A stretch of DNA of 61,993 bases, counting the filler, from Jimgerdemannia flammicorona (lineage: Eukaryota), in NCBI GenBank assembly GCA_003990765.1. It is 3 parts of 3 records of this genome, joined end to end, with 100 filler letters (N's around TTAATTAATTAA, not from the genome) between each part and the next. Parts side by side here need not be neighbours in the genome. Positions count along the whole stretch, not along the records: positions 41,397 to 61,993 come from RBNJ01001641.1; 2 more parts are not named here. One strand, 5' to 3'. Numbering within the stretch: position 1 is the first letter of the stretch; each line of letters starts with the position of its first letter. Both the position numbers and the translations under genes were made by a program. This document shows, one piece after another, positions 13,331 through 54,357 of the stretch. Below the pieces are notes generated by a model that was given only the letters and a program-made list of their open reading frames with translations, did no database searches and was not told the origin of the DNA.

Positions 13331-13370
13331 AAGATTGTCTGAGGACAGACCACCCTTTAGTGAGGGCTAA

Positions 13371-16845: not shown

Positions 16846-16875
16846 GGATTAATTGAGAACAAACCGTATTTTATT

Positions 16876-20598: not shown

Positions 20599-20698
20599 NN
20601 NNNNNNNNNNNNNNNNNNNNNNNNNNNNNNNNNNNNNNNNNNTTAATTAATTAANNNNNNNNNNNNNNNNNNNNNNNNNNNNNNNNNNNNNNNNNNNN
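20599..20698. other. Assembly gap with TTAATTAATTAA spacer
   Basis: 100-nt N block with a six-frame-stop linker at 20643-20654. Confidence 0.97.
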
Positions 20699-27700: not shown

Positions 27701-27754
27701 CTAGGGCTGCTATCTTTTTGTCTGCTGATGTCATTCTATTACTTATGTATATAG
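24713..27754 (-). mobile_element. Old AT-drifted Gypsy relic with dUTPase, host of E2/E3 insertions (probably continues 36502-36959)
   Basis: Minus-strand translation ~26620-26295 gives SLTKK..VERVIN*GFK..IKVLLYN..IA.A..NRREKSFR (decayed dUTPase motifs). ~25345-25180 gives PSYCGIYRLVQPELETLKKQLIDL (Ty3-type RT N-terminus). Confidence 0.65.
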
Positions 27755-29307: not shown

Positions 29308-29565
29308 TCTTCTTTCTTAATCCTATAACCTCTAGCAAGGAGTCAAAAAGTAGTATTTATGAGCTGGCATCTTCCCTATGTATTTTGGCATAATGGTGAA
29401 GGGTTGCTCCCTTTATATAGAGCAAGAACCTGATTTTGATCTTGACCAATCAGTTGATGGTTTAAACTTCTCTGGCTTTGAAAGTCTCATAGATGAGTAG
29501 TTACTGATACTGTATCTCTTAGAGAATGGTCCAGACAGATAGCCTGCTAGTCATGGGACATGCTG

Positions 29566-30813: not shown

Positions 30814-33800
30814 GTTGAATAGTCTTGATGGGGGTATTTCAGGGTGTCCTTTAGAGTGCATCAGTATTGGTATTAATTCTTCCTGAGTGGTGCTTGACAG
30901 TACAGTCATACTCTTGCAGCCTGTAGATCCATCTGGCATATATTTCTTTGGGGTTCAGAGTGTGGAATAGCCAGGCAAGAGCAGAATAGTCTATTTGAAT
31001 GGTGAAGTATTTCTCAGCTAGGTAGTAGTAGAACTTATCTACTGCCCAAACTACTGCTAAGTATTTGAGCTTACATGACTTGTAGTTCTGTTCTACTTCA
31101 TAGGTATCTTGGCTTGTATAGGAGATGATATATTCATATCTATCTTTCTTCTATACTAGGACTGCTCCAAGTTCTATAGCACTTGCATCTGTCTGCAGGA
31201 TGAACTCTAGGTTCCAATCTGATCTTCTGAGGATGGGTGCTTGGGTCAATCTGGTCTTAAGTTTATTGAAGGTTTCTTGGTATTCCTTAGTCCATTCAAA
31301 TTTGATTTCCTTCTTCAGTAGCTTGTAGATAGGTGCTGCAATATTGGAGTATCCTTTGATGAATCTTCTATAGTAACTGGCCAATCCAAGGAAGGCATGG
31401 ACTTCTGTAGTTGTTCTGGGTCTCGGGTAGGCTACAATAGCCTCAATCTTCATAGAGTCTGTGTAGATTTCAGTCTGGTTGATGAGGTGTCCTAGGTAGG
31501 TAATTTCCTGAGCTACAAACTTGTATTTCTTGGGCTTGATGTAGAGGCTGTGCTCCTTGAGCTTCTTGAGGGCTAGCTGTATATAGTTGATATATTCCTA
31601 TGCAGTATTGCTGAAGATGATTACATCATCAATATAGACAAAGAGCTATTTTCTAATCTTGTTGCTGAAGACTCTGTTCATCATTCTCTGAAAACTTGCT
31701 GGAGTATTACACATTCCAAATGACATTTTCAGGTAGATATAAGTAGTATCAGGTGTAATAAAGGCTAATTTCTCACTGGCATCTTAAGTGAGACCAATCT
31801 GATGGAAGCCTGAGAACAGATCTAAGGTGGTGTAGTATTTGGCTTTACTTCCAAGAGTAGTAAGGATTTCTTGAATATTTGGCAAGAGCTGTCTATCCTT
31901 CTTGGCAATTGTATTGAGCTTCCTGTAGTCAATATAGAGTCTTGGTGCAAACTCTCTAGGCTTGCTTCCTTTCTTTGGGGCAAGGATAATGGGTGAAGCC
32001 CAGGGACTAATAGCTTGCTTGATGATTCTGGCTTCTTCTATTTCCTTGAGTTCTGCTTGCAGCCATTCTCTGTAGACAGGTGGTATAGGTCTGGCTTTCT
32101 GATAGATAGGTTTGGTATCATTAGTATCAACTTTATGATAGTACTTGGGTTCTTGATTATGGATATTCCTGAAGTCTGTAGCAAGTACTTCTTCATTCTA
32201 GTACAGGATCTTGAGAAGTTGTTCTTCCAGGGGAAAGTTTTCTCTAATGGTATATATGTACTTGTTCTGGTCCTTGTCTTTCTTGTACTCAAGTTTGGTA
32301 ATCTTGATAGTGGCATAGGCTCCTCTTCCAGTAGATCCAAAGCCTTGTTCTCTCTTAGTCTTGATGAGTTCAATGGCTTCCATGATCTTGGACTTCTTGA
32401 TTTCATGGATTAGTATCTGGCCAATCCTGTCATACTTCTTGACTTCAAATAGAGTGGTGGGGTTGTGATTTCTGACTATAAGAAAGATCTCACCAGTATA
32501 ATCAGGGTCAATTACTTCTCCTTCAACTGAGATTTTGCTTTTGGCCAGACTGCTCCTGGTCTTGATAATTTCAGTATGGTTCTCTGATAACTTGACTTCA
32601 ATTCCAGTGCTAAGTAGAGTAGTGGTCTGTAGTTCAAGGATAGCATCTTGAATACTGACAAGGTCCATTTCTATGGCTCCTTCAGTTTTGTATTCTGGGA
32701 TCTTGGCTTTGGGATAAAACTTCTTAACCTTGAGGGTGATGTCTGGTTCTTGTTTCTCCTCATTATCACTATCAGCTTGAAGCTCTGGGAGCTGGTCATC
32801 TTCTTCAGCTTTCCTTTTTGCTTCAGTAGCTTCTTGCTTATACTTCTGTTGGCAGATTTTTCTGACTTCACTGATATAGGACCAGCAGTCATTCAGGTGT
32901 TCAGAGCAGTACATCCTAGTACCATGGGAATATCTTCCTTGAGAGACATAGTCATTGATGATCTTGTTATACTACTGCTCATCTGTAAGCTTGGGTGTCT
33001 TGTTCTTATTCTTGTTTACTGAATACATGAAGACTTCTGTGTCCTCTTCATCTCCTTTCTCTATGTCTGATAGAACTCCTTTATGGACATTAATAGAGAA
33101 TCGTACCTTTTTTCCTCTATAGTTGATCTGCATCTTCTGGGCATTGAGATCAATGATGGTTTTGACCTTGTGAAGCCATTGGTTGCCAATAAGGATGTCA
33201 TAGTTGGTGGCACTTGTAACAATCACATCTACTGGGATGGTAGCTTCTTCTATCTTGATGGAGACTTCTCAGATTTTGCCAAGAGGGGTAGCTTGTGTAC
33301 CATCTGCTGTAATATAGACCATCTTGGTGAACTCTTCAATGTCTCATCCTAGGCAGTCAATTGTCTTCTTGCTTATAAGGCATCCTCCAGTACTGGTATT
33401 GATGATGTATCAAAGATATAATCTTCAATCTGATATGGAGTATAGGCTGATGTCTTGCACTGGTCTTTGGATTCTTTGCCTGAGTCTTCAGATTCTCCTT
33501 GTGTATTGTGAGCTTCTACAATCTTATACTCTTGATTCTTGGTAGTAGTTGTAAGTCCTACTCTCAACTGCTGTCTGAAGGCAGGGACTTCAGCTAGCTA
33601 TCTAAAAGTAGTATTAACCTTCTATTTCTTGAGATCCTTATAGATATCATACTTGTGGATCTTGGTCTTACACAGCTTCTGTTCCTTTTTGCTTTTGCTT
33701 TCTCCTGAGACTAGAGTAATACCTTCAATGATTTGGTAGGCAGTTTTATCTAACTCCATATCTTAATCAATCTCCTCAGGTTGGGTCTTGCTTTGATTAG

Positions 33801-34827
33801 TGATAGCTGGGGTCTTCTTTGGTCTTCCAACTGGCTTGCTGTTACTCTTCTTGTCATAGGGCTTGGACTGAGTTCTGGTATCTTCAGTAGCAGGATAGAA
33901 TTCAAGCTCCTCATAGTATTCTTCATTATCAGTGTCACCAATCTCCTTGATGACTACTGTATTGGTTTGTTCTCTGGTTCTGCTAGCATTGCTTAGTTGG
34001 ACTTTGTGTCTTGTTTCAGTCATGCAATTCTTTGTATAGTGGTCTTTTTCTCCACATCTGAAGTATATGATATTGTATTCTTCTATAGCAGCTGTAAATC
34101 TCTACACTGGTCTTCTGTTGGCACTTCAGACTTCTCTAACAACATTATTAAGGTGTGCAGTCATCTTGGCAAACTGCTTGGTGAGTTCCTCCACTGGGTC
34201 AGCTTTGGCTATCTTGGGGGTAGGTAGGGATGGTTATCTGTTTACAACTGTAGCAGGTATGATACTGGTTGGCTTTGATAGCTCTATCTTGATACTAGTT
34301 ATTTTCTCCATTGAGTATTTGGCAGGGTGTCTGATAGTTCAATATCTCTGTACAAAGACCACTTTCTGATCAAGAGTGAATATAGCTAGGGTAGACCAGA
34401 TTTCTAGGGCAATTTTAGGGTGAACTCCTTTGAGGAAGATTGAATCTACTATGTATTCCTTGAGGGTATCATCATAGTCAGCCAAGACAATCTGGTGGCA
34501 GATTTAGATATAGAATGAGTTGGGATCTTCACTGAGTCTCTGGCAGATAGTATTGAGTTGATCCTTAAGAGCTTGCTTGATCTCTTCAATATAATATGTT
34601 GTTCTGAGGAAGGCCTTTATGTTGGCAAGTTTGGCTATACTATTATTAGCAATAGTGGTTGCATTGAACTTGTCTCTGGTAGATCCTCTGAAGCTGACTG
34701 ATAGAAGAGTCAATTGTGCATCTATACTAAGGGCTCATATAGCAGCAAATTGTTCAAAGTCTTCAATGAAGGTCAGGATTGACTTTTTAGTAGTATATCT
34801 ATAGAATGTGGGTGGACATATTTCTAT
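30806..34827 (-). pseudogene. E3 gag-PR-dUTPase-RT-RNaseH
   Basis: Capsid remnant. CCHC remnant ~34050. YDILIGNQWL. dUTPase (RSSLA, EVIDPDYTGEI, GFGSTG) 32330-32735. YIDD, AFLGLASYYRRFI, LQTDAS. Confidence 0.92.
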
Positions 34828-34947
34828 CTTAACTTAAATTCTTATAGAGGTGACTCTTGTAGTCAGGGTAGTTATTGTGGTAGTTGTTTGTTTTTCAGCT
34901 TAAAAGTAAGAGATTCATCTTGAATCATCAGCCAATAGGTACCAAGT

Positions 34948-36501
34948 TGTTATGTAGTGGTCGCTGAGTCCTTCAAATATACCAGATTCTCTTTAAGGTA
35001 TATCTCTTAGACTAACTCAAGTTTGTTATAAGCAAGTTCTTATTGGAGTACCTTCCCAAGGTCTTATAGTCCTCAAAATTCTTATCTTTAAACTGTCTTG
35101 TTATCTCTTAGATTACTTATAAGGAAGTGTATATATTGCACTGAGAGGAACTGACTTTATTTTAGAGGAAATAAGAGAGATATTTATACAAAATATAATT
35201 TAATGGTTGCTAATATATAAAGCTAAATATAAATTCCAATAACTAAAATAAAATACCAGGATAGAGAAAACTGCTAAGTTTCAGTTTCAGTACTGATGGT
35301 TGTATAGGGTCAAGATACTGGTATAATTTTGGTAATACAGAAAAATAGTACTGGAATAATTTAGTGTCACATCAGAATACTGGTAGTAGAACAGCTGTTA
35401 TACAGGAAAAGAGTGCTAGTATAATTCAGTATAACCAAGGGACTTAGAGCAGAATATTCAAGACCATAGGGGCTTCATCCTCATCTAAGATCAGGATGTC
35501 TTCAAAGGAGATAAGATCTATGAATTCATCATTGTTATATAGATTGCATGTTTTGCATATATTATGTGGGATGATGTCATCACTGATGATGTCATTACAT
35601 TTGGCAGCAGGAAAATTGGAGGCTCTCTAATCTATGAGGTTTTCTTCCACAAAATAGAGAACAAATATGGAGTCTTAGGGAGGTCTAATCTAGATGCTTG
35701 GGCCTTGGAATACTGAGATCAATCCTTACAGGAATTGGTCTGGGTTGTCTTGGAGGATGGGATGCCAGAAGTCTTCTACTTTATTATTATTAAGGGTAAT
35801 AGTAGACTGGGCTTCTGTAGCCACTCTAGCTTCTAGTATATTGATATGATGGGCTGATAGATCTCTGAAGTCTGAGACTCTAACATACTCCAAGTTGGGG
35901 ATTAACTATAGTATATGTCTGAAGATCTGATGAATCTTCTTAGCTGTCCTTACTTCACATATATTCATAGGAGTAGCATCTTGTAACTCTTGAGGGCTGG
36001 TCTGTGGGAACTTCTAGCAGAGGATATTTCCTATTTCATACTCCTACCATATTTGGAGATATTCAGTAGCAATGGTGATCCTTGTTTCCATTTTATAGTA
36101 GTAGAGAATATAATGATAAGGGTCACTAGTACCCAGGTTGACACTAGGAGTCCTTCTTGAGCAGGTCCTCATGGCTCTTCTGATATCTTAGAACATCCTT
36201 TCTTTGACTTAGGTAACTTGGTAGTTCCTTGACCTTAAGGTTTGATAAGCAGCAGGCATTTTATTTGTGGTAAGTCTTTGAGCTATTTTGGGATTAGTGG
36301 GTCTTATTGGTTACTGCTACTATAGTTTCTTGATCCTTCTTTTATATTCCTCAAGATATCTATACTGTGGTTACAATAACTCATAGTTGGTCATCATTGC
36401 TCATCTTATATGCCATATGATCTTCTTATACTCTGATCTAGTAGCTTGCAAGAAAAGACTGTCTCCTGTACTGATTTCATCATTCTGAGGTCATTATTAT
36501 A
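34948..36501 (-). repeat. E3 5' LTR (1554 bp)
   Basis: Colinear with 27755-29307. Confidence 0.95.
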
Positions 36502-36959
36502 ATAGTAAAATAGTAGTAGTCTTCCTTCAGATACTATTATCTCAGAGATTGTATAATATATAGTTGTTTCTTCTATATATAATATCACTAAGATAAGTGA
36601 ACTTAGTAATTAGTTTATAGGTTTGTAGTTTTAATAGAGTTATTACTAAGTCTTTTGCAGTAATTTACAATAGACTTAATGTTCTTAGTAGTGGATTCTA
36701 GGGTTACTAGTATTAGGTTTGAGTATTTCTTCTAGGTTGGAATAATATAGTAGAGACTTTACTATGTTCAGCAGTTTATAATCCTCACTATTAGATTATC
36801 TTTACTTATATATAGAAGACTTAGTAATAGAGATGTAATTTTCTTTAATTAGTATAATATCTCTTATAGTTCAGAAAGGTCTTGACTTTATAGTAGTAAT
36901 TATTAGAGAGGAGATTCAAAAAATGTTTACTTATAGTTTTAATAGATACTCTTATATAT

Positions 36960-37426
36960 TGTAACATAGCAGATACTTACTCTTGAAAGTACATCAGATT
37001 TCTGTATCTTGAAAACTTGACTGTTCTGACTCTTGCAGAGTCTCTTGAAATTGCAGGGGAGGGCAGGTGAGTTTGAAGTATATCTGCCTGTAGGCTTACT
37101 AGTTCCTTTGCTATCTCTTTACTTTGAACTATTTCGATCTGAGGTTTATTTACTCGAAGATACTGGGTTATTTATACAAGTTTGCTAGCTATGAGATAGT
37201 TACTGGGTTACATGGCTAAGTTATGAGTCATTTAACACTTTGTGAAATATTTCACCAGTTGCAAAATGCTATACTATATTGGGAAGCTCAATCTTGTGCT
37301 TTGCGAAATATTCAGCAGATGGCAAAATCAAGAACTGTTAACTATGTGGCTATACTACTTTGGAACTGGGTGCAATCAAGTATCTATTCCCTATTTCCTT
37401 CTTCTGAATTTAGCTATACCATCACA
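36960..37426 (-). repeat. E4 3' LTR (~467 bp, single copy in window)
   Basis: TG...CA ends after the PPT. Contains CTAGCAAACTTGTATAAATAACCCA...GAGTAAATAAACCTC, shared with the E5 LTR. Confidence 0.75.
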
Positions 37427-37463
37427 ACTTCCTTCTGAATAGATGATCTCATCCTTAAGGCAT

Positions 37464-37917
37464 CTATTCAAACTCTCAAGCTTCAATGGTCTGTATGGTC
37501 TTGTATTGTGCGATTTATTGCATTACTGTTTCCCAATGGTATCATCTGACTCAGTCAAAGTCTGAGAGAGTCACTTCTTGCAGGTGGGCTAGTGCTGATT
37601 CATCCTCTCAGAATAGCTTGTGGATTCTCTTAGCAATGGTGATCTGGGAATAGGAGAGCTGACATTCTGCGATCCAATTCTCTTTGGTTATTTCTGGGTC
37701 TTGGTTGAGTACTTGGCTAAGTTTGAAGTACTCTTGAAATTCATTTCAATGCTGATAGGTCTTAAAGTGTGAGATTCGAGAGAGATGAGTCTGTATGATG
37801 CTTTGGATACTGTCATAAGACTCCTCTATGGTCAGAGGTGCACCATTGTCTTTTGATGGCTCTTTGGGCAGTGCTAGTGATCTTGAGTACCATCGCAGTA
37901 CTTTTGTTACTGGCCAT
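37464..37917 (-). pseudogene. E4 accessory ORF3
   Basis: FQEYFKLSQVL...ITIAKRIHKLF*EDESALAHLQEVTLSDFD. Stops are mostly TGA, consistent with CGA. The start needs a frameshift or is uncertain. Confidence 0.75.
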
Positions 37918-39100
37918 GATGTTTCTTGAGTCGGTTTCAGTGAATGGTAGTGGGGATTATTGTGCCTGAGGGTTTTTGTAGCCAAAAGGTGGTCCCTTTT
38001 ATATCTTGCACCAGGTAAGGTCCTTCCCACTTGGGCTCCAGTTTTTGTGACCATGAAGCTTCAACCATATTCCGATACACTAGGACTTTGTCTCCTATCT
38101 TGATAATCTCCAAGGGTTTATGGGTCTTTTCCACATTCCTCTGTTGTAGTGTCTGCACCTTGGTTATGTAATCCTCAGCCTTCTTCCTGATTTGGTATAG
38201 TCTCTATATTTCCATATTCACATGTTTCCATATAGCATCTTCATTGGATGATAGGGTTCCCTGAGAACATTTTTCTCTGAACAGCATTTCTTGAGAGATA
38301 AAGTGGGTACTCTGTGATCAGATATCCCAGAGAGTGGATAATGCTATTGGCAGATAGTGATCCCAGTTCTCATAGTTATTACAGATCTTGGCAATAATGT
38401 TCTTGAGGGTTTTGTTGATCCTTTCTACTTGTCTGTTTCCTTGAGAGTGATATACTATGGTCTGAATATGCTGGATCTTGTACTTCTTGTAGAGAACTTC
38501 GAAGAACTGGTTCATGAATTCTTTTCCTCTATCTGTAGTTACTTGTGTTGGGGTCTTGAACCAGCAGATGATTTCCTTGTAGAAGAAATCGGCGATTGAC
38601 TGTGCATTGGCTTCCATAAGGGGTCCCGCTTCTATCCATTTTGTAAAAAGGTCTACAATGATGATAATGTATCAGTTGCCAGTCAAAGTCAAGAGTAGAG
38701 GGCCAATTACATCCATTGTGATGTGGGCGAATGGTACTGGTTCTATGTGTGCTGATCCTGGGGCTCAATTTTGTTGGTCTTGTTTCTGTTTCTGGCATTT
38801 GTCACAGGTCTTGATGAATTGTCTGATATCTTCCTCCATCTCTGGCCACTATATTGTTCTTCTTGCCTTGTCATATATATTCATTCCTCCTAGATGGCCG
38901 AGTTCATATACTGATTTCATCACTTGCTCCTTCTTGTGTTCTGGTATGACTAGTAGTTTTCCTTTCTTTAGTATTTCTCTATCAGTTTCGAATTGTTTCT
39001 ATATTCTGTTGATAATTATTTGTGTCCATTCTTTCAGATGTTGGGGCATCTTTCACTGTCTCAGGTATGTGATAATTCCATAGTAGAGCTCTTTATTCAT
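37907..39100 (-). pseudogene. E4 integrase, separate ORF
   Basis: MNKELYYG start in frame with GHLGG and WPEM..CDKCQ. Also TTDRGKEF, HSQGNRQVER and KLEPKWEGPY. Confidence 0.9.
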
Positions 39101-41276
39101 GATAATTTTGCAGAGGTAGAGTCCTTTGGGATGTCTGTGAGAGGGCATCAGCATTGGCATTGGTTCTTCCAGAGTAGTGTACAATGGTTACATCATAAGC
39201 TTGCAACTTCATTATCCATCTGGTATAGATTCCTTTGGGTTGTCCAGTTGTCAGTAGCCAGGTGAGAGCTGAGTGGTCTGTTTGGATGGTGAAGTGTCTT
39301 CCAGCCAAGTAGTAGTGGAACTTTTCTATGGCCCAGATGACTGCGAGGCATTCCAACTTATAGAATTCATATTCTTTTTCAGCTCCTCAGGTTCCATGGC
39401 TGAGGTATGCAATGATATACTCCACTTTATCTTTCTTTTGAGCTAGAACTGCTCCTAGTTCTTGTGCACTTACATCAGTCTGTAGGATGAATTCTTGAGG
39501 CCAGTCAGGTCTTCTGAGGATGGATGCCTGGGTCAGTCTGACCTTGAGTTCATCAAATGCTTTTTGTTGTCTGCCAGTCCACTGGAACTTAGTATCCTTC
39601 TTGTTAAGTTCGTAGATTGGTCCTACAATATTAGAAAATCCTCTAATAAATCTGTGATAATAGGAGGTGAGTCCCATGAAGACTTGGGCTTCTGTAACAG
39701 TGGTGGGTCTTGGGTATGCTGCCACTGCTTATATCTTGAGGGGGTCCATGTATATTCCATCTTAGTTAATGATGTGGCTGAGATAGGAGATCTCAATTTC
39801 TGTGAATTTATATTTTTTGGGCTTAATGTATAGGCTATGCTTTCTCAGTCTTTCTATTATCTGCTGGATGTGCTGTAGGTGTTCTTCTGGTGTCTGGCTG
39901 TAGATGATTATATCATCAACATAGACCATCATCTATCTTCCCATGTCATGGTGGAAGATTTTGTTTATCATTTGCTAGAAACTTGCAGGTGTATTGCACA
40001 TTCCAAATGACATCCATAGGTAGATGTAGGTTCCGTCTGGAGTGATGAAGGCTGACTTTTCACTTGCCATTTCTGTGAGTCTGATTTGATGGAATTCTGA
40101 GTATAAGTCTAAGGTGCTGTAGTACTGTGCTTCATCTCCCAGTATTATAAGGATGTTACTAATGAGTGGCAGTGGTTGGCGATCCTTCTTGGTAACTGTA
40201 TTGAGCTTTTTGTAGTCAATATAGAGCCTTGAGGCGAATTCTCCAGGTTTGCTTCCTTTTTTCGGGGCTAGTATGACTGGTGAAGACCAGGGGCTGCTGG
40301 CTTCTTTAATGATGCTGGCTTCTTCCATCTGCTTGATTTCTTCTCTGAGCCATTCTCGGTAGGCTGGCAGGATAGGTCTTGCCTTCTGGTAAATTGGTTC
40401 AGTGTCTTTGGTATCTACCTCATGATAGTAGTGTGGAGTCTTTCCCTTGATGTCCTTGAAATCTGTGGCAAGGACATCTTCGAATTCATGGAGTATTTTC
40501 TTGAGTGGAAATTCGTTTCCAATGGTGTAGCTGTGCTTGCTTGTGTTTTTCTCTTTCTTATGCTTGAGTTCGGTGATCTTGGTACTGGCAAATACTCCTC
40601 TTCCTATAGATCCAAATCTTTTCTTTCCTCTTTTCATTTCTTCCAGATTCTTGACTTCTATGATCCTTGGTTGTAGGATTAGAAAGATCAACATTTGCAC
40701 CAATTGGTCCTTCTTCTTGACTGGAAATGGGATTGTAGGATTGTGATTCCTAGCAATGAGTAGAATTTCTCCAGTATAGTCTGAATCGATGACTCCTCCT
40801 TCAATTGCAATTTTGCTTCTAGCCAGACTGCTTCTTGTCTTGAGAATCCCGACATGATCCTTTAGAATGGTCATCTCCAGTCTAGTTGCAAGTAGGGTGG
40901 TTGTCTGAGGTTCCAGTACAGTCTCTTCTACTGTAGTGATGTCCATTCTGGCTGCATTTTCTGACTTGTATTCTGGCAAGACTGTATCAGGGTGGATCTT
41001 TCGAATTTTGACCTTGATTTCTTCTTCATCATCACTGTCCTCCAGGAGGGCTGGTGGTTCATCATCTTCCTTCTTCTCTTCTTCCCTGATCTGTTTTTCA
41101 AGAGCTTTCTGCCTTCTTTCCTGGTGGATCTTCTTGATTCTGATGGTGTACTGGTAGCAATTATTGACATACTCCATACAGTACATCTTGATCCCATGAG
41201 GACAGACTCCTTGTGGTGTATAGCCTTCTGTGATCTTCTTGCACCATTCTTCTTCACTCATCCATCCAACTTTCTT
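39093..41276 (-). pseudogene. E4 dUTPase-RT-RNaseH
   Basis: 428-aa ORF with RSSLA, GGVIDSDYTGEI and RGKKRFGSIG, then SPWSSPV and IDYKKLN. RH ends NADALSQTSQRTLPLQNYHE*. Confidence 0.95.
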
Positions 41277-41296
41277 CTTCTTTTTTTTTTTTTTTT

Positions 41297-41396
41297 NNNN
41301 NNNNNNNNNNNNNNNNNNNNNNNNNNNNNNNNNNNNNNNNTTAATTAATTAANNNNNNNNNNNNNNNNNNNNNNNNNNNNNNNNNNNNNNNNNNNN
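41297..41396. other. Assembly gap with TTAATTAATTAA spacer
   Basis: 100-nt N block with linker at 41341-41352. Confidence 0.97.
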
Positions 41397-41599
41397 AAAA
41401 AAAAAGAAGCATAGGGAGGAGTAGAGTATGGAAAAATAGCAAAGAGTAACAAGCTTACAAAATTCACTCTAAGTTTGCTTGGAAGTCACTCAGTCAATCA
41501 GAGTTAGCCATTTTAATGATATCACCAATTTTGATGATATCATAACCAATCATAGTCTTCAAATTTTTGCAGACAAATTTGCCTACATTTGTCTATAGT

Positions 41600-41947
41600 C
41601 TAAGAATTAAGAACATTATTACCAAGATCTATAATAACTATGAAAATTGGAACTACTATCTACCAATAGCATTATCTACTCTCTAGAATATTTAATTACA
41701 AAGTATATATCTATTTTACTCTATAAGAAATACTATTTAGAGAAAAAAGTACTTAAGAAATTCTATAGTCTAATAGAGATACTATATAAAAGTATACAAA
41801 CATAAAGATATAGAAATTATATTAAATTAGAAAGAAGACTGAGATTATATAATCAAGATATAAGCCCTATAGTAGAATAATATAGAAAAGATTTACAAGC
41901 TTTTGGAGATTATTAAGATAAGAGACAAAGTTTTAGTATATATATAT
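41600..41947 (+). mobile_element. Relic of an E4-like element (integrase C-terminus), left of the E5 insertion
   Basis: KIYKLLEIIKIRDKVLVY matches E4 KTHKPLEIIKIGDKVLVY and resumes at 54358. Confidence 0.75.
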
Positions 41948-42079
41948 TGTGACATATACAATTGACAATGGAGTACTAGTGACTGCTAAGATCAGAAGAC
42001 ATAATGGCATAACAATCAAATAGACAGCCTGACCCATTAGGTGATCATCCCAAAAGAAGACAAGATGATCTGAGCCAAA

Positions 42080-43102
42080 ATGAAGACCACATTATTTAAG
42101 GAACCATACTCCACCTCAAGAATCAGCACCAAAGAACCAAGTATCCACCACACAATGCCTCCCATTTGCCAAACCAACCAGACCTCCCGCTGCTCTACCC
42201 CTTTGCCTGGCCCAAAGACCCTGATCTTTGAAGTTATCAAGAAGGCCATCTGGCACTCAGATACTTCCGAACACTTGAACTTCTACACTGAGGACCTTGG
42301 ATACTTCATCAACTACTGGTATATAATGACCCAACAGCTCAAAGATACTACTGAACAAATGACCCTCTGGTATGACTATGAAATCGGACACCGCCTTCGC
42401 AATGAGACTCAAGAAAGCAACCAGGAAGACCTCATTGCCAAAATGTTAACCACCAGCCAGCTAATCAAAAGAGCCCTCCGTGTCCATCAAATCTTCTGCC
42501 ATATTCCCTGGGCTATAGCACACTTGTAAGGAGTAACAGCTGACAGCCTCTCCCGCCTTTCAACTGAAGATGCTGACTGGATAGAATCTGAAGTAGTCAA
42601 CGCTATTGGCAGCAACTGCATCACTGTAGGAAGCCAACAAACCAAACCTACTCAGCCAGGTTTCCATACTACTCCACTCCGAGACAACCATCAAGGTCAC
42701 CTAATGAGTCTTATGGAGATATTTGAAGGACTGCCCATCACTATAGAGGCACCTGTTGGAGCTACCCCAACCACCCACCACCCTGTCAGCCACAATTCAC
42801 ACCTCATCATTTGGGAACCGAATCAAGAAGAAGCCCAAGAAGTTCCTGTCTTTGAAGAGGAGGCCCAAGAACTCCAAGACCCTGCCTCTGAAGAAACCCC
42901 CTCTGACATTGAAACTGACGAGCCTTCAGAAGAAGAAGAGGAGCAACAGAGAGTCTACTAGTCCTCTGTCTACATTCAAGCTGTTCAAAGGTTGGAGAAT
43001 GTTGTTGAAGATGACTGGCCACTTTTCTACCCCCTCACCTCTTGGCTGGCGCTTCCCCCCTTTGAGAAGAGATATGATGAAGAAGAAATCACAACCCAGT
43101 AA
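42080..43102 (+). pseudogene. LTR (U3)-encoded accessory ORF of E5, ~340-353 codons
   Basis: ORFs 42080-42529 and 42704-42961 share one frame. Internal stops are read as Gln in E2 or the 3' LTR copy. May extend to TAG ~43141. Confidence 0.8.
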
Positions 43103-43168
43103 GATTTTCTCGCTGCGGATGAAGGGTATTATTTCCTCTAGAGTACCACCCATCAGCCGTGAGAACTC

Positions 43169-43370
43169 AGCATTTTGTCAGCAGGTCTGAATCCAGCATT
43201 GCTACTCAGTACCACCGTTTTCAGCATTTTGTCAGCTCATCTGAATCCAGCATTGCTACCCAGTACCACTGTTTTCAGCATTTTATCAGCTCATCCGAAT
43301 CTAGCGTTGCTATCCAGTACCACTGTTTTCAGCATTTTGTCAGCTTATCCGAATCTAGTATTGCTATCCC
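43169..43370 (+). repeat. 54-bp tandem repeat, ~3.7 copies, in E5 U3 (also ~53311-53512)
   Basis: Unit CAGCATTTTGTCAGCTCATCCGAATCCAGCATTGCTACCCAGTACCACCGTTTT. Confidence 0.9.
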
Positions 43371-44213
43371 CTATAACCCAATCCATAGTAAACAATAGCC
43401 TGCACCTCGTATCGTGCAAACCAATAGCATAAGTTTGCCACAACATAGTATACCTTAGCCTTAGTTACACCCCTCCCCCATAGCTAGCAAACTTGTATAA
43501 ATAACCCATATCCTTAGAGTGAATAAACCTCAGTCAGCTTGTATTTAAAAGTAAAAAGGATTACAAAGAAACCACTGCCTCCAAGAGACTGGATAAATTC
43601 TGAGAACAAGATAACAACCTAGAGCAATAGATTGCTTGGAAGTTTGAGTTAAAGAATTTTCTCTTGCCATGGAAAGAAAATGTTACCCGACCACCACCAT
43701 TCAGACCACGCATTCGACCACCATTCGAGATTCAAGACCCGGAAAACCAAGGAACCCAAGGATACCCAGCCAAACAAGACCACAGCCTAAGACCTGCCAA
43801 GATACTCAAATGACCATCAAAGACCCGAGTTATCCCGCCCTTTCAAGCTAAACAAGATGGACGAGCGAGCCGTCGACTGATTCCTGACCTACTGTGCCAT
43901 GGACCACTTTAATTGACCGCTTAAAGCCAAGCCCGTCATCACCGCCAAGTTATTCGCTGCCCTTTTCCACTAAAAAATTGAGCCACCATCATTGAACAAC
44001 CGAATGACCTCATCATCGACGTCCTGAGCCAAACGAACAATCGAACTTCTGCTATCAATTATCGCATATTTCGAATGATCCGATCACGTGACCATTGACC
44101 CGTCACCACTGTGAACATCACCAATGCATTCAGTTATCTATTGCACACTTCACCAGTGGCACACATTGAGCCATGCCAGAAGCAACTAGGGATACAAACC
44201 CAACACCACATTT

Positions 44214-44231
44214 TGGGGGCTCAACTGGGAA
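44214..44231 (+). promoter_or_regulatory. E5 primer-binding site, tRNA-Pro-like
   Basis: TGGGGGCTCAACTGGGAA directly after the LTR. Confidence 0.75.
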
Positions 44232-44279
44232 GGTTTTCAAAAGACTTGACCATTTGGCTCAAGAACCCAGCGATCTACA

Positions 44280-47200
44280 GTGGAGAACTTAGCAGGACCA
44301 AGTCAGCAACCAAACCAGGGGCAGCAACAGCCCTCCTCAGCAGAAAAGAAAGCCTACACCCTTGTCAGAACAGTAGCCAGGACCCTACTCAACACCAGTA
44401 GCCAGAAAACCGAATCAGAAGAAAGAAGTGACCCAGATTACGGTTTGACTCCAAGAGAAAGGAGACAACTCAGAGGGCAACCAGAACCGCCCCTTCAGAT
44501 CCAAGACTTAGGCCAAGAAGAAGAAGAAGAGGATATCTCTAAGGAGTATCAGACCCTTATCCATAAGAAGAACTCAGACAGAAGTGACTACATAACTACT
44601 GTTATTACTCGAGTCACTCCACTAGACTGGGTATACTTTGAAACATCAGAAGGAGAAGAGGACTACCATCTATATCAACCAGAGCAAGATGATGATTGGG
44701 GATCAGACCATCAAAGAGATGAATTCAACCTATACTATTATCCAGACAGCGACACTGACCCACAACAAGGCGAACCAGACCTCACTACTTCACAACAGCA
44801 AGGGGTAGATGAACTCACTATCAGTTATATCAGTCCACTCCCACCATCAGTTGCTTGAACTTCAGTATCCTGGTCACTCACACCTCACCACTATCACCAG
44901 TCAATCAGAAGATCTCCACCACTACCCAGGATGTCAACCCCAGCATTAATTAGAAGAGCCAGATTACCCTCACCCTCACCAAGACACCACCCTCTGCCAG
45001 TACTACTAGATCATCAAGTACTAGCACCACCACCTTTCCCATCACTCCGAGGATCCACCAGATCCCCTACCCCTGAACAATACTCAGATAGTGAAGACGA
45101 GCCAGACATGAGCTACCTTCAGAAGTTCCATGGTGCAGACAATGAAGATATCAAGGAATTCTTTGGAGAAATTGAAGTTCAAGCAGCTGCCAAACAATGG
45201 GATGCTGTAAGAAAACTCAGAATTGTAGAGTCACTCCTGAGAGGACCAGCCCTACAGAGGTATAATCAAGCCAAGTAAGCTGGAGGAGGAATCCATACAG
45301 AGGAACTGAATGACAGTCTTCAACCTGATAGGAACCATATAGCAAGGTACATGATTCACAAAGCCTGGCTCCATGCCCAGTTCAATGGATTCAAGCACCA
45401 ACAAGAAGCACAGGAGGCTTTGACCTATATGAGCCAAGCTGCCAATGAAACTCCCAAGAGTTTCTATCATCGGATTTAAGCTCAAATGATCAAGGTGAAC
45501 CTTCAACCAGCAGTCCAACTGGCCTTAGCCTCAACTACCTTCCTCAATGACTTATACCCAGAACTCTGAAGGCAAGTTATTAGGATGGGATATCGAAACA
45601 TTGAACAGCAAGTTGCTGGAGCACAAGGATGTTGGGAAGCAGATTATAGACCAGTACAACAAGTACAAGGCTATCCTGAGCCAATCCAAGCTGAAACCCC
45701 AAGGACCAGAGGAACAACTATGGAGCAAGAGAATGCCTTCCTCAGAGCCCAGATAGCCAACTATGAGAACAGACCAGCACCCACAAATCCAACTCCATTT
45801 AGGCAACCACAGCAGCAGCCACCATCAAGAGTTCAAGAAGACCCTATGACAATGCTCACTAAGCAAATGAAGGACCTGGCCATCGTGGTTGCCCAGCTGA
45901 ACAACCAAGGTAGAAGACAACAAGACTACTGTCATAATAACAGACCAGACTACCGGCAACAAGACAACAGAGGTCCCACCCCCGCACTACCAGCTACAAC
46001 TACAGCCTCATCAGCGACTGGTTCCTATGGTCCCACCTGCTTCAGCTGTGGAAATCAAGGCCACATCCAGAGGAATTGTCTAAGGAACCAACCCACCCAG
46101 TCCAATGACAGAAATGTCAACCTCTTTCAGGTAGATGAAGAGACTCAGGAGATGGAAGAAGAAGCAGCCTGACTCCATGGTCAAGAAGATGACATCTACC
46201 CATACTTCGAGGCCTTTCCATCCAAGGTGATATGGGAAGCTGCCCCCACAGAGACCAGAGGGTGAGGAAGACCACAAAGAAACCCCCCACCTCAACTACC
46301 AGTAACTATATCCACAGGCAAGCATCTGCGATATGGCTATTCTTCTTCAGACACTCCACAAGAACAGGAGAAGCGAGTTAGAAGAGATACTCCTGAACCA
46401 GAAGCTGGACCATCTAGGACAACCCCCAGCTCTACCCTGCCAGACTTTGAAGAAGATGAGCATATGAGCATAGAATCTTCAGCTGATGAAATGCCCATCA
46501 GGAATGAGAGACTACACTCCAAGGGACCAAGACACCGAAGAAGCAGCAAGCCCCATGCAGCAGCCTCACTTTGGGAACATATCTGCCTATAGTATACTGG
46601 TCTTACAGTTGAGCAAGTCCTCAAGAATGCACCAGAGGTCAGGCGAAAATTCCTGAAAGAAGCCAAGGAAGACACCAAGAGACTTCCAGTCCAAGGACCA
46701 CACACTCAAGAACCTAGCACTATCCATGCAGTCTATGAGAGCCAGTGATATGAACATCAATCTACAAGACTCGTCGATGGAAAAGTGCATGGTGAAAATA
46801 TCAGAATTCTTGTCGATACTGGAGCAGCAGTATGTATCATCACCCAAAGGATATTGGAGCGAATTGGATGGGGAATAGATGAAGGAACTAAAGCAAGAGT
46901 TATCATGGCCGACGGATCAGCTTCCACACCCCTTGGACTTGTCAGAGACATCCCCATTCAAGTTGGAAAGGCCTGCCTCAATGTACCCAAAGCCATCATG
47001 ACCCCTGCAACCTCCTATGACCTGATCCTGGGAACTGACTGGTTAAGCCGAGTGGGAGCTAATGTAGATATCAAGAAACAACTCCTGGTCTTCTCCACTC
47101 ATGGACAGAAGCACAAGGTGCCCATTGACTCGAAAGGATTATCTAAAAAGACGAATCAAGCCTCAGAAACAGAATGGCAAGAATATGGCAATACCCCCAC

Positions 47201-50200
47201 TACTACTGAGAATGAAAGTGAGACTAATTTCCTACAAGAACTAGGAAGTGATTTCAATGCCCCAAGGGACCAAGAAAGCGAACAAGAAGACTCTTTCATT
47301 GGAGTTATTGGTGTTGAAGGCCTGGAAGAAAGCATTGATAGAGCCATTAATATAAGAGCAGCACTTGAGTTTATAGGATCTTCTGCTCAATCACCACCAC
47401 CACTGGTAGAAAATCGGATCATGCGAGCCTTTTGTTGAGGCATATGCGAATACTTCATCAGCTTCCACTCACCAAGAGATGATTGCAGCAATTGCCAAAT
47501 CCTGGATCTCAAGAAGGTTCCAATGCCAGAAATCGATGACAAGGATGAATTGAAGCAAGCACCATCCCACAGCCAAATACAACCTCCAACCCCAAAGACC
47601 TTCAAGAAGACCTATAAGGAAGGACAGAAGATCCTCGCCCACCAAACATTCGAGTCCCTTACCATTGAAGGAGAAAGCAACAGCTCTTACACTATCACTC
47701 GGGCCCTCCAGATCACACAGCCCACCTATGATAAATATCAGAAGAGATTCCCTACCAGTAGGGAGGTCAAATAGCAAAATGAAGACTTTGTCAAGAAGGG
47801 ATATTGTGATTGTGGAAAAACCTTTACCTGCTACTGGTGTGAACATCGAGACGTTCACCTCAGCGAAGATGTCTACAAGAGCCGAGTCAAGAGAAAGGAT
47901 CCCACCCTGCAAAAACCTTGAATTCACTGGGCCTGTCGGAAGTGCAAAGAAATCAACTATGAAGGAGATTGCAAGTTCAAGAGCAAGACCTCCATCTGGG
48001 ACCTACCATTGGAAGTTCTTGCCATCATTCGCTGGTACTGCCACCCTCATCAAGGAAAAGAAGGTATCAATCTTGCCTTCACCCTTATGGAAGCTCTGGA
48101 CCCTCTAGAAAAGACTGGATTCAATTACACAAGAAACTCAAAGACAGGAGCTCACTGGCCTTTCTTCAAACCGGAGTGCATGGACTTCTCACCTACAATG
48201 ACAACAGCTGAAGCGCTATTTCTCAAAGCTCAACCAATTATCCAGATCAAGCTGCTTTCACCCTGGGCACAGCCACCTCTTGCACAAACAGAAGGATCAG
48301 TTGGCTATGACCTCTGCCTCCCCTACCAAGTAAGAATCTGACCCAGAAGTACCAGGACTTTTGACCTACAGATCACACTCGCTATACCACCTGGGCATTA
48401 TAGACAATTGGCCTCAAGATCCTCATTGGCAACCAAAGGAGTTACAGTAGAAGGAGGAGTCATCGATCAGGACTACCGAGGTCTCTTGAAGGTCATTATC
48501 TGCAATTCCAGTAGAACCAGCCGATTCTTCAGTCCTATGGAAGCCATCTGTCAAATCCTGTTTATCAAGACATCACAGCTGACTATCCAAGAGGTAGACC
48601 AACTAGAAGATACCAACAGAGGACAAGAAGGCTTTGGAAGCACCAATAGAAATCTATGGACACCACCTATCGAGGTTCATTTGGCAATAGTTGCTCAATT
48701 CTGACAAATGAGACCCCATATCTACCGCCCAATCCGAGCAAGAGAAGACATCCTCCTGCAGCCCTACCAGCAAAAAGGCCTAGATGTGCACCTACCAGTA
48801 GAAGCAAACAACTTGATATTTGCACCATCACTGGAGCTTCAAAAGGAATACCACATCCTCCTGGCTGAAGAACAAATTCATGACCAGATGTCACCAATTC
48901 ACATCCCTATCAGAAACTTGGCCTTCGAAGTGATAACTATCTCCAAGGGAACAACACTGGGATATTTCAAACCACTGATAGACACCTACGAGGAAGAAGT
49001 CTTCAAATTCTTGGGAAACAGCAAGCTCTCTCCAGTGAGACTGACGGTACCAGAGAGGAAGACTCAGCAAATTCAGTACTCAAAGCTGTCGACATCGAGA
49101 CAACTCTAACCAAGGACCAGCAACAACAAATACAGGAGTTGATAGAGGAGTACAAAGATATATTTACCACCACATACGATAACTTCCTACCATATCAATA
49201 TGGAGAACACCCTATACATACTGGAGATACAAGACCAATCCGACAAAGACCCTACCGAACACCACATCATCTGATTGAATTCAAACAACAACACATAGAT
49301 GAAATGCTATGAAATGGAGTTATCAGACCATCATCAAGCCCCTGGGCCTCACCAGCAATCATAGTACCAAAGAAAGGAGGATGGAGATTAGTCGTGGATT
49401 TCAGAAAACTCAACAAAGTCACCACAGAAGATGCCTACCCACTGCCAAGAATTGATGACCTCATCAATGCCCTCGGAAAAGCCAAATACATGACCACTAC
49501 TGACCAGTTCCAAGGATTCCAAGTAATACCCATTGCCAAAGAAGATATCTGCAAGACGGCCTTCATCATCAGACGAGGACAGTATGAATACCTATGAATG
49601 CCCTTTGGACTCTGCAATGCACCTGCCTCATTCCAACGAATGATGAACTATGTCTACTGGGACCTTATTAGAAGAAATGTACTAGTGTACATAGATGATG
49701 TAATCATCTACTCTGAGACATTGAAGCAGCATTTGCAAGACCTCTGCGAAGTATTCAATACCATTCGAAATTCAGAACTCAGACTCAATGCCAAGAAGTG
49801 CTTCTTCAGAAAGCATCAAGTCAAATATCTGAGATATGTTGTCTCAGCTCAAGGAACACATGCCGACCCCCGCAAGGTGGAGAAAGTCAAGAACTACCCA
49901 ACCCCGACCTCAGCAAAGGAGACCCTATCCTTCCTTATACTGGCATCCTACTATCGACAATTCATCCCAAGGTTTTCAGATAAGGCAGCACCTCTCCGAG
50001 ATATCTCCAAGAAGGACCAACCATTCTACTGGAAAGGAGAACAACAAAAGTCATTCGACCTACTCAAGAAGACCCTTACCGAAGCCCCTGTCCTGGTGTG
50101 ATCAGACTTTGGCAAACCATTCATCCTGGCAACTGATGCCTCAGCCTTAGGACTTGGATCAATTCTGTCTCAGTAAGATGACCAGAAGAGGGAGCATATT

Positions 50201-50548
50201 ATCGAATATACTAGCAAGGCCACGAATGAAACACAAGCGAACTATGGAGCCACTAAGTTGGAATGCCTAGCAGTAGTTTGGGCTGTGGACCACTTCTGAC
50301 ACTATCTCTTGGGAAAGAGATTCGCCCTCATCACTGACCATCAAGCTCTACAATGGTTGTTCAATAAGCCAGAGCCCTCAGGAATCTTCACTAGATGGAT
50401 CATGTCCCTGCAAGAATATCAGTTCACTATTGTCTACAAGAAAGATGCTAAGAATTCCAATGTCAATACCCTGTCAAGAATCCCGTGAAACCAACAAGAA
50501 GGGAAGGAGCCCCCACAAGAGAAGGCTGCTTCCTGTCTACCCAAATGA
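44280..50548 (+). pseudogene. E5 gag-PR-(Cys-rich/F-box-like)-dUTPase-dUTPase-like-RT-RNaseH
   Basis: ORF fragments at 44280, 44931, 45585, 46785, 47523, 48009, 48408 and 48708 all share one frame, with one frameshift ~49090. Motifs CFSCGNQGHIQRNC, ILVDTGA, GYDL/RSSLA/GGVIDQDYRG/RGQEGFGST, YIDD and LATDAS. Confidence 0.95.
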
Positions 50549-51765
50549 ACCAAGAATTGCACCTCGCCCTTACCTGGAGCCTACACCATAGAAGCTTCAA
50601 GAAAGGAATTCAACCAGCCTACAAGTTGTTTATCCAAAGGAATTTCAAGAAATTCCAAGAAGACAATAGCGAACTTTGGAGAGTAGAAGGAGAGCAGTAC
50701 ACCCGAGTTTCAAGAGAAGAAGAAATATTGAAGATTCTGACAACAAATCATGACCAAAATGCACACCAAGGAATTGGTACCACAATCGCAAGAATCAAGA
50801 AACGATACTGATGGCCCAAGATGAGAAAACAAATTTCAATGTACATTCAACAATGTGATATCTGCCAAAGATACCGACAAAAGCCTACCAACAGAGCACC
50901 ATTAATACCAATCGCAGCACCAGCTGGAGCCTTTCAAAGACTAGGAATAGACATTATTGGACCTCTACCAGTAACCAGCCAAGGAAGATACTACATCCTC
51001 ACTATCAAAGACCACCTGACAAAATGGCCCGAAGCCTTTGCTATCGAGACTGCCGATGCCCAGACAATTATTGGGATCCTGTATGATGAAATTTTCAGCC
51101 GCCATGGTGTGCCCAAGGAAATCATTACAGACCAAGGCCGAGAATTCGTCAACCAAGCCATGAAGACCTTTGCGAGCAACTTCAAGATCAAGCTATGACC
51201 AACAACAGCCTACTACCTACAGACAAATAGACTCACTGAATGAATGAACTAGACCATCAAGCGAGGTCTCAGTAGAACCGAAGATCAACTAAACTGGGAT
51301 ATCTATCTACCGGCAATTCTGTTCAGCATCTGTACCTCTAAGGTAACCGCTACCCAACAGACCCCCTTCTATTTGGTATATGGCTGAGAAGCACAAGATC
51401 CTACTGAACCAGTCCAGCTAGATCTGTCAAAACAAGTCACAGAAGAGATCACCCAGTTACATGACATATGCCAGCAAGCACGAGAATTTATCGCCAAGGC
51501 ACAAGAATGACAAAAGAGGTACTACGACCGCAAAGCCAACCTTGAACCCCTGCTCATTAGACAAAAGGTTCTGGTGTACCGTACCATCATAGAAGGAAAT
51601 TGGAGTACCAAGCTTGAACCAAAATGGAAAGGCCCCTATCTCATACATCAAGTATTCTCGAACCACACTTATCAACTCAAGACCTTGGATGGAGTTATAC
51701 TCAAGACCAAGATACATCACAACCGCATAAGACTCTACTACTCAAGAGAAGCAAAATGCATTTGA
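50545..51765 (+). pseudogene. E5 integrase, separate ORF
   Basis: MNQELHL start. HDQNAHQG...CDICQ, GIDIIGP, TDQGREF, KLEPKWKGPY. No chromodomain seen. Confidence 0.93.
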
Positions 51766-52090
51766 ACAATCCTGTTCACTCTGTCTGTATTGCCTCCACT
51801 GGAGATACAATGGATATTTCACTCGGAACTCAAGAAAGCCAATAACGTTGGAACCAGACTCAAGCCCATCCACGTGACAGACTTTGTTACTAAGAAATTG
51901 TCTCGGATTATAAGTAATACTATTTCCGATGGATTCGAACCCCCAGCCGTGACTATGGGAGCTCTCGCCCTAGATAAGGATGGCCAGTCCTCACAAATGC
52001 ACCAGCATTCCGCTCATCCCTAGAGTTAAGACCACCCAACTCTGTGTAATCCTCACTGCCGAGGACAGCTCTAATTTTGCAAGGGGCAGA

Positions 52091-54353: not shown

Positions 54354-54357
54354 ATAT

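Follow-up and report, generated by a model that had tools for sequence, protein, structure and literature searches.

A probable protein gene inside the long terminal repeats of Ty3/Gypsy retrotransposons of Jimgerdemannia flammicorona

The locus examined here raises the question whether a retrotransposon can carry a protein gene inside its own long terminal repeats (LTRs), and what such a gene could do. The locus belongs to a 61,993-nt stretch of DNA from Jimgerdemannia flammicorona (GenBank assembly GCA_003990765.1), referred to as the window, in which an open reading frame (ORF), here called ORF3, was found in both LTRs of a retrotransposon termed E5. A first-pass annotation of the window had described the frame as an accessory ORF of the whole lineage, located after the integrase in some families and inside the LTR in others. 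ORF3 was found to be, with high probability, a real and selected protein gene that is embedded in U3 in sense orientation and constitutes the third gene of the element. The coordinates of the features are collected in Table 1.

Self-comparison and Pfam searches identified the window as a nest of LTR retrotransposons adjoining a host gene with BRCT domains. E5 is a Ty3/Gypsy (Metaviridae) LTR retrotransposon. Its LTRs have TG..CA ends, a sequence resembling a primer-binding site (PBS), TTGGGGGCTCAAC, which is common to E5 and E1, is found immediately 3' of the 5' LTR, and the Pfam matches follow each other along the element in the order zf-CCHC, aspartyl protease, dUTPase, RVT_1, Integrase_H2C2 and rve. 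RNase H matches in Pfam were found in E3 and E4. The true pair of LTRs, together with the polypurine tract and the PBS-like sequence, confirmed the earlier statement that the ORF is located inside the LTR.

The E5 LTR is composed of its start, about 207 nt, ORF3, an array of 54-bp repeats, a TATA box followed after 26 nt by AATAAA, and R-U5. The TATAAA(T/A)-26 nt-AATAAA module was conserved in every family (E1, E3, E4, E5) and is positioned 3' of the ORF. The 58-nt block around the E5 module was 92.9% identical in E4 (37193-37139, minus strand) and 98% identical in E2, and 20 out of 20 nt were shared with E1. Judged from this layout, the module would be the promoter and poly(A) core at the border of U3 and R. 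ORF3 is assigned to U3 in E5 and E3 because it lies between the LTR start and the module. Since the poly(A) signal follows the TATA box but precedes the probable start of transcription, R would be short, and transcription of the signal would be confined to the 3' LTR. A short R of such a layout occurs in some retroviruses. The 54-bp array occupies an enhancer-like position in U3; the same array was found by Tandem Repeats Finder (TRF) in the E5 3' LTR at 53310-53509, and no such array was found by TRF in 22400-36500, which covers the LTRs of E2 and E3. The proposal that LTR size follows the location of the ORF was found to be correct for U3, which measures about 300 nt in E1 and about 1,340-1,580 nt in E3 and E5, and incorrect for the whole LTR, due to the long R-U5 of E1.

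ORF3 was present in five long copies, in both LTRs of E5, in the LTR of E2 and in both LTRs of E3. A hidden Markov model (HMM) built from 17 metagenome relatives matched the copy in the E5 5' LTR with 298 bits (independent E-value, i-E, 1.8e-92), the copy in the E5 3' LTR with 304.5 bits over 52325-53161 and the E2 copy with 301 bits, and the scores for all five were in the range 125-304 bits. By tblastn with the E5 ORF, the E2 copy was matched at 24571-23693 with 85.7% identity over 293 aa, and the E3 copies were found at E 2e-10 and 2e-7, in agreement with the E2 and E3 copies reported at first pass. The strings W(Y/H)DYEIGH and RALRVHQIF.HIPWAIAHL.GVT quoted there were likewise recovered in place. 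The single reading frame given for 42080-43141 was correct, and only its start had to be moved, to the conserved methionine at 42155 (MPPICQ). The 25 codons upstream are not conserved: their ATG reads ATA in the E5 3' LTR copy, and the extension is missing from those intact relatives whose sequence includes the N-terminus (P0002, P0004, P0009, P0012 and the metagenome locus L001), all of which start at MPP. In L001, an in-frame stop is found 17 codons upstream of this start.

ORF3 is the conserved part of the LTR between E5 and E2. Over 946 nt the ORF was 90.5% identical, with no gaps and 8 transversions; gag of the same pair was 91.5% identical. The LTR preceding the ORF (206 nt) was 75.7% identical with 11 gaps and 16 transversions, and the repeat zone (315 nt) was 74.6% identical with 63 gaps and 31 transversions. 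Ratios of non-synonymous to synonymous substitution (dN/dS, Nei-Gojobori) in two E5-E2 pairs were 0.296 and 0.306 in frame, compared with 0.66/1.13 and 0.63/1.16 for the out-of-frame controls. A ratio of about 1, which the first-pass annotation had named as speaking against the ORF, was not what was observed. These substitutions show that the frame was maintained by purifying selection.

The copies in the window are dead. Premature stops interrupt the E5 5' LTR copy at 42527 (TAA), 42959 (TAG) and 43100 (TAA). Between the LTRs of E5, 173 transitions and 3 transversions were counted, 77 of 106 polarised changes were C>T or G>A, and 24 of 50 C>T changes took place at CpA. Contigs from soil metagenomes read C and not T at 42527 (run X1) and 42959 (run X3), which restores Gln codons. 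The premature stops are decay, and the copies were inactivated by C-to-T mutation resembling repeat-induced point mutation (RIP), with which the host clearly attacks these elements. The soil-metagenome copies were less AT-shifted than the window copy. Older relics in the window had fallen to 14-31% G+C, and AT-rich tracts are found at 25000-28000, 41397-41947 and 54354-57000.

Intact relatives were found outside the window. A profile search of 1,835,955,588 cluster representatives resulted in 11 matches with an E-value of up to 0.001, of which 7 were at or below 1e-10 and 4 at or below 1e-30. Once cluster members were included, the intact ORFs ranged from 247 to 342 aa and represented no fewer than six divergent lineages. 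P0002, P0005 and P0009 are of the E5 type and P0010 and P0023 of the E3 type; the other relatives are P0012, P0011/P0020 (locus L001), P0022 and P0018. All relatives were from JGI or ENA metagenome assemblies and none from a named or annotated proteome; repeat masking has probably hidden the protein family. Gene callers had given stand-alone ORFs beginning at the same MPP. Intact proteins of the E5 and E3 types were 32% identical over 167 aa (E 1e-21), and the E5 type and P0012, with the same MPP start, were 32% identical over 250 aa (E 1e-27). The full ORF of L001 was 56% identical to P0012. The LTR DNAs of E5 and E3 had no mutual match by blastn, and conservation of the protein outlasts that of the DNA between families. 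Scanning of metagenome loci with the E5-type alignment gave 106 pattern matches and no confirmed locus, and with the E3/P0012-type alignment 338 matches and one locus, L001. In word-indexed homologue searches, 3 of 612 candidates matched, and with the profile 2 of 1,835. Two C-terminal ends were observed in the E5 type, ...EVTPADDVWHQL in P0002/P0005 versus ...KVTIQQDDLFATDKGYYTL in P0009/P0007, the second being the version of the window.

These comparisons bear on the possibility that the frame has no function as such and is a conserved cis-acting LTR sequence (enhancer or RNA structure), a product of chance or a carried fragment of a host gene. The stops in all five long copies of the window, the lack of expression data (no RNA run among the 10 returned for the sequence) and the tiny size of the family would fit such a frame. 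It agrees poorly with a low dN/dS that is found in frame and not out of frame, with 946 nt free of indels between flanks rich in them, with a similarity seen only at the protein level between families whose LTR DNA cannot be aligned, and with intact ORFs in several lineages. A host donor is not at hand either, as the searches returned metagenome matches and no homologue from an annotated proteome. A non-functional frame was therefore considered very improbable, and a selected gene in U3 is the preferred explanation.

E4 and a relic of the same family, E6, have the ORF in another position. E5 is integrated within this AT-rich relic, which makes up 41397-41947 and continues from 54354 onward; its left flank at 41609-41941 matches the E4 integrase, and the integrase C-terminus is found at 54363-54470. 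The HMM, built from metagenome proteins only, matched E4 at 37503-37727 (i-E 2.4e-5), and the relic segment near 54800 was matched to that of E4 by tblastn with 41% identity over 85 aa (E 5e-18). A profile of E4 and the relic aligned with the family by hhalign over 68 columns (probability 88%, E 3e-6). The post-integrase copies in E4 and the relic were thus supported, and the profile-profile alignment between families on which the first-pass annotation had staked its claim was significant.

The E4 segment ends at a purine run, a putative polypurine tract, which is followed at 37426 by TGTGATGG, similar to the LTR starts of E1 (TGTGATGAGC) and E3 (TGTAATGATG). TGTGATGG is located 250 nt upstream of the E4 TATA box, and the spacing in E1 is equal. 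Because of the purine run, the LTR-like start and the E1-like spacing, E4 very probably has the ORF outside its LTR, the start of which is deduced from one LTR end only. When the limits of the E4 LTR were sought by alignment to the relic or to DNA lying past E3, only 38071-37374 aligned (63%) and the rest was AT-rich noise. E4 holds the helical core only, approximately HMM positions 59-134 or about 70-150 residues, and its homologous part is without the N-terminal helix, the start methionine and the acidic tail. The E4 arrangement may be the ancestral state or a deletion derivative, and a shift of the polypurine tract, as proposed at first pass, is one possible mechanism of the relocation.

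The segment of E4 and the relic follows the integrase at a distance of no more than about 100 nt and precedes the putative polypurine tract. This position could indicate that ORF3 is a former C-terminus of Pol or integrase, or a particle-associated accessory protein made from genomic RNA, that now lies behind the polypurine tract in E3 and E5. No Chromo match at E<=0.01 was found in 12 frames 3' of rve (E1, E3, E4, E5), although the copies are decayed and a badly eroded domain could escape detection; in elements without a chromodomain a different C-terminal module would be unsurprising, which favours this origin from Pol. It is opposed by the frame of the E4 segment, which differs from that of the integrase, and by the layout of E3 and E5, in which a stretch of about 300-350 nt, the polypurine tract with the LTR start, and another 207-240 nt come between the integrase stop and the conserved methionine of ORF3. 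The relatives called as stand-alone ORFs from the same MPP also argue against it, as does, weakly, a search for a longer form fused to Pol, which found none among 3,198 candidates of 600-2000 aa. An origin from Pol was considered improbable, and an independent gene is preferred.

An internal copy had also been proposed for E1 (12902-13366, plus strand). This copy could not be supported, as hhalign gave a probability of 0.7% (E 0.083) and the HMM 3.3 bits. A score of 3.3 bits was reached by 5 of 500 shuffled sequences and nothing was found at this position in a window-wide HMM search, and E1 was rejected as a member of the family. The accessory ORF is thus found in E5/E2, E3 and E4 with the relic, and the claim that it is present throughout the lineage does not extend to E1.

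The protein is composed of three parts, a short N-terminal stretch, an all-helical domain of about 130 residues and a proline-rich acidic tail predicted to be disordered. The N-terminal stretch reads MPP.R..NQTS(R/H)(R/H)S.PLP, and the first 24-27 residues have a net charge of +5 in P0002 (24 residues) and +1 in P0009 and P0012. Within the core, the motifs W.(E/D)YEIG..L and A(K/R).(I/A)HQIF.H.P..I.HL..V are almost invariant. The C-terminal halves have net charges of -13 to -29 and contain 11-22 prolines. AlphaFold predicted seven core helices. In P0004 the helices cover residues 20-151, with a mean predicted local distance difference test (pLDDT) of 74.7 and a predicted template modelling score (pTM) of 0.68; the P0012 model (mean pLDDT 55.5) repeated these helices and had a disordered tail. 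The description of the protein as helical with an acidic tail was thereby borne out.

The protein did not resemble any described domain in the searches performed. No Pfam family was found at E<=10 for four intact relatives and nothing for the ORF pieces of the window, so that no match to a described Gypsy domain was seen. A sequence profile search of the PDB gave no match at E<=10, and the ESM Atlas no usable match for P0002. Foldseek searches with two models gave best E-values of 0.38 and 2.1 against the PDB, the best against BFVD was E 0.35, and VIA-align in wide mode gave best Z values of 3.9 and 3.5, all with models of only moderate confidence. Helical models often gain much higher Z by chance, and the fold searches show neither a new nor a known fold. 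No enzymatic signature was found by the Pfam, PDB and fold searches. No membrane segment was seen in seven relatives, in which the maximum Kyte-Doolittle mean over 19 residues was 0.46-1.09 and below the usual threshold. This agrees with the earlier view of the protein as not env-like, for which no dedicated signal-peptide program was run. A relation to gag was rejected, as hhalign of the intact E2 gag ORF with the family gave a probability of 0.2%. This gag ORF (20762-21931, minus strand, 390 aa) had no Pfam match, and the capsid part of the clade is not recognised by Pfam.

The position of ORF3 has consequences for its inheritance and expression. Because the gene is inside the LTR, it is duplicated with the LTR, and the layout shows it placed so that it would form the 3' end of the genomic RNA. 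A candidate promoter of its own was found in E3, where TATAAAAG is located 87 nt upstream of the ATG in both LTRs (36346; 29152), and in the independent metagenome locus L001, where TATAAAAG is at -80. The leader AAAGACTTACCACAAA before the ATG is common to E3 and L001. Expression of the gene from its own TATA box in U3, about 80-87 nt upstream of the ATG, was given somewhat less than an even chance. In such a case, a short mRNA of about 1.2-1.5 kb could be produced from any LTR, solo LTRs included, and would end at the AATAAA of the element, and every LTR would be a self-contained gene cassette. In the internal arrangement of E4, the transcript would be 3'-coterminal with the genomic RNA.

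The product could act in trans as a regulator of the element's own LTR, with the helical domain for targeting and the acidic tail resembling an activation region. The gene is found directly beside the enhancer-like repeat array in E5. This role, which would be functionally analogous to that of Tas in spumaviruses, is tentative; it was given well below an even chance and is the most likely of the roles considered. A transactivator or anti-silencing factor, as suggested at first pass, would fit the architecture of the protein. The combined proposal of a U3 gene with its own promoter and a trans-acting regulator of its own LTR as product was judged to be evenly poised. Somewhat more doubtful than the regulatory role as such is an extended form of it, in which the LTR is a self-contained gene with its own TATA box, an ORF of 250-340 codons that encodes a hitherto unseen fold and the element's poly(A) signal as terminator, the dose of protein reads out the number of LTRs of the family, and the element has a built-in transactivator or copy-number sensor with a U3 gene of retrovirus-independent origin. 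If this were true, full copies would carry the gene twice, solo LTRs left by recombination would stay expressed, and the transactivator or copy-number sensor would be of a kind undescribed for LTR retrotransposons.

The product could alternatively counteract control by the host or restrain the element, as a counter-silencing adaptor or in copy-number control, and not as an activator. In the copy-number version the dose of the factor would grow with each LTR, solo LTRs included. The anatomy and the evidence for selection apply equally to a role of this kind, and the RIP-like inactivation by the host would create a pressure for counter-defence. In the acidic tails, repeated short hydrophobic motifs (DLISF, DLITF or DLINF) are followed by clusters of D and E and may represent short linear interaction motifs. 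The DLISF-type motifs are, however, not conserved in the E5 type, and no domain of a known suppressor or restriction factor was found by sequence searches of Pfam and the PDB. A counter-defence or braking role was considered doubtful, and regulation of the element's own LTR is the reading carried forward.

A number of observations weigh against this reading. With regard to function, it was deduced from composition alone, and acidic disordered tails fit many roles. Only one of five AlphaFold models was confident in each prediction, the others having a mean pLDDT of 40-55 (50-55 for P0004), so that both the three-dimensional packing and the lack of fold matches are weakly founded. With regard to the promoter, the internal TATA box was found in only two lineages, E3 and L001, and MAFFT put the two boxes in different alignment columns. 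No TATA[AT]A was present at this position in E5/E2, where only a TATTTAAG-like string at about -55 was seen. With regard to the gene itself, stops in every long window copy mean that no active gene is demonstrated in this genome, and evidence of expression is absent; the four runs examined were contigs of DNA or unknown type, 200-900 nt in length. The dN/dS estimates are rough, since the pairs also hold neutral decay from after insertion. The two E5 LTRs, whose divergence dates from after insertion, showed no frame-specific constraint, as the dN/dS between them was 0.70 in frame and 0.33 and 0.71 in the controls.

In retroviruses, genes are known that lie within U3 or overlap it, with mouse mammary tumour virus (MMTV) sag, human immunodeficiency virus (HIV) nef and the spumavirus bel genes as examples. 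The parallels to sag and nef drawn at first pass are positional analogies only. As in MMTV sag, ORF3 is a complete sense ORF inside U3, and thus in both LTRs, of an unusually long LTR. The MMTV product, a type II membrane glycoprotein, belongs to a retrovirus of vertebrates and is made from spliced mRNAs, whereas the ORF3 protein has neither membrane segment nor Pfam match, its host is probably fungal, long-range splicing is unlikely and the U3 TATA box is the suggested route. Nef of HIV and simian immunodeficiency virus (SIV) overlaps U3 of the 3' LTR, is myristoylated (Met-Gly start), is expressed from a spliced mRNA and is an adaptor with acidic clusters. ORF3 shares with nef the overlap of an accessory ORF with U3 and the acidic clusters, but it starts with Met-Pro-Pro/Ala, has no similarity to Nef in Pfam or BFVD and is located wholly within the LTR.

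The spumavirus tas/bet (bel) genes are 3'-end genes that reach into U3 and have an internal promoter, and Tas, a transactivator, binds DNA and possesses an acidic activation region. Common to these and ORF3 are an accessory gene at the 3' terminus next to or in U3 and, as proposed, an internal promoter and a 3'-coterminal mRNA. ORF3 differs in being wholly inside the LTR in E3 and E5, and no sequence or fold similarity to the spumavirus proteins was found (Pfam, BFVD). By analogy, the proposed expression would resemble the internal promoter of spumaviruses more than the spliced mRNAs of sag and nef.

Retroelements acquire new biology through extra genes, of which env, sag, tas and nef are examples. 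LTR retrotransposons have only a small number of such genes, most of them unexplained and reported from between the LTRs. ORF3 is an orphan accessory gene, real and selected, in an unusual place, as genes in U3 have otherwise been known mostly from a small number of retroviruses. The literature search, which covered sources other than subscription papers, Repbase/Dfam, figures and supplements, did not turn up any account of a conserved protein gene within a retrotransposon LTR. In the accessible parts of the sources, extra ORFs have been described in LTR retrotransposons of plants, rotifers and fungi (PMC7264820, PMC2864245, bioRxiv 10.1101/2021.04.13.439636, PMC5408684). These include the plant aORFs (PMC7264820), the 'add. 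ORF' of fungal Gypsy elements (PMC2864245) and brtn of Botrytis BcGypsy1/Boty (bioRxiv 10.1101/2021.04.13.439636). Like the aORFs, as they are described there, ORF3 is an extra ORF of unassigned role besides gag and pol, and its position in E4, between pol and the 3' LTR, is one of the usual aORF sites. In contrast to ORF3, none of the aORFs, brtn or 'add. ORF' is described inside the LTR in these parts, the comparison being by description and not by sequence. The available text of PMC7264820 contained no occurrence of 'in/within/inside the LTR'.

The shift of the ORF relative to the polypurine tract between sister families represents a natural experiment on the capture of coding sequence by U3. 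A gene in the LTR accounts for the length of 1.5-2.3 kb of some fungal Gypsy LTRs, and remnants that consist of an LTR only could therefore still give rise to protein. Identification of the function of this orphan protein family would introduce a new type of accessory factor for retroelements.

Table 1. Positions in the window of ORF3, its copies and the elements that carry them
Feature	Position	Strand	Description
ORF3, E5 5' LTR copy	42155-43141	+	328 codons, ends with TAG at 43139-43141
Upstream extension of ORF3	42080-42154	+	25 codons in frame, not conserved
ORF3, E5 3' LTR copy	~52298-53284	+	5 in-frame stops over 315 translated codons
ORF3, E2 LTR copy	23510-24496 (ends approximate)	-	TTG start, 2 stops
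ORF3, E3 5' LTR copy	35444-36259	-	one frame, 9 stops, HMM 246 bits
ORF3, E3 3' LTR copy	28263-29065	-	stops and frameshift near 28658; HMM 125 + 86 bits, two frames
E4 homologous core	37431-37919	-	directly after integrase; ends at 9-nt purine run 37436-37428
Relic (E6) segment	54604-54991	+	same post-integrase segment as E4
E5	41948-54353	+	LTRs 2,263 bp, 92.2% identical
E5 5' LTR	41948-44210	+	ends TGTGAC...CCACA, then PBS-like TTGGGGGCTCAACTGGGAAGG
E5 3' LTR	52091-54353	+	92.2% identity to 5' LTR
Polypurine tract GCAAGGGGCAGA	52079-52090	+	abuts E5 3' LTR
54-bp tandem repeat	43167-43366	+	3.7 copies, TRF score 302; between ORF3 and TATA box
TATAAAT-26 nt-AATAAA core, E5	43496-43527	+	LTR position 1549/1575
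TATA/AATAAA module, E1	4898-4929		LTR position 272/298
TATA/AATAAA module, E3	27995-27963 and 35188-35156	-	LTR position 1311/1338
E1	4627-14532	+	LTRs ~1.15 kb (self-comparison and end inspection)
E2	24720 down to 20699	-	5' part of E5-like element, cut by spacer
E3	27762-36499	-	LTRs 1.54 kb: 5' LTR 34955-36499, 3' LTR 27762-29305
E4	36500-41296	-	cut by spacer; pol 68.7% identical to E3

The carrier clade is one of non-chromoviral, dUTPase-bearing Ty3/Gypsy elements and is probably fungal. A dUTPase between protease and reverse transcriptase (RT) was found in all four Gypsy families (9604-9970, 32315-32629, 40590-40910 and 48342-48701), and this position is a notable clade marker here. Fungal Gypsy elements with a dUTPase have already been described, as stated in the accessible part of PMC2864245. 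The PBS-like sequence TTGGGG(G)CTCAAC(T/A)GGAAG is present at 44211-44235 in E5 and 5774-5795 in E1 despite their otherwise unalike LTRs, and E3 has a different sequence at the PBS position 3' of its 5' LTR.

Two identical filler spacers, N44-TTAATTAATTAA-N44, are found at 20599-20698 and 41297-41396 and contain stops in six frames. E2, E4 and the relic of the E4 family end abruptly because they are cut at these joints between three contigs. A non-LTR element of the long interspersed nuclear element (LINE) type occupies 14992-20500, with a G+C content of 52-56% and endonuclease/exonuclease/phosphatase and RT domains. The excess of G over C in this element is very pronounced (skew 0.3-0.54), and long open frames are present on both strands.

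The host gene at 58556-61800 directly borders the transposon nest. It has twin-BRCT, RTT107_BRCT_5 and BRCT_2 domains, is Rtt107/TopBP1-like and is spread over several frames, probably due to introns. Rtt107 is a named regulator of Ty1 transposition. The nearest Atlas clusters of the host gene were mostly from Ascomycota, with low scores of 0.79-0.83 that serve as a lead only.

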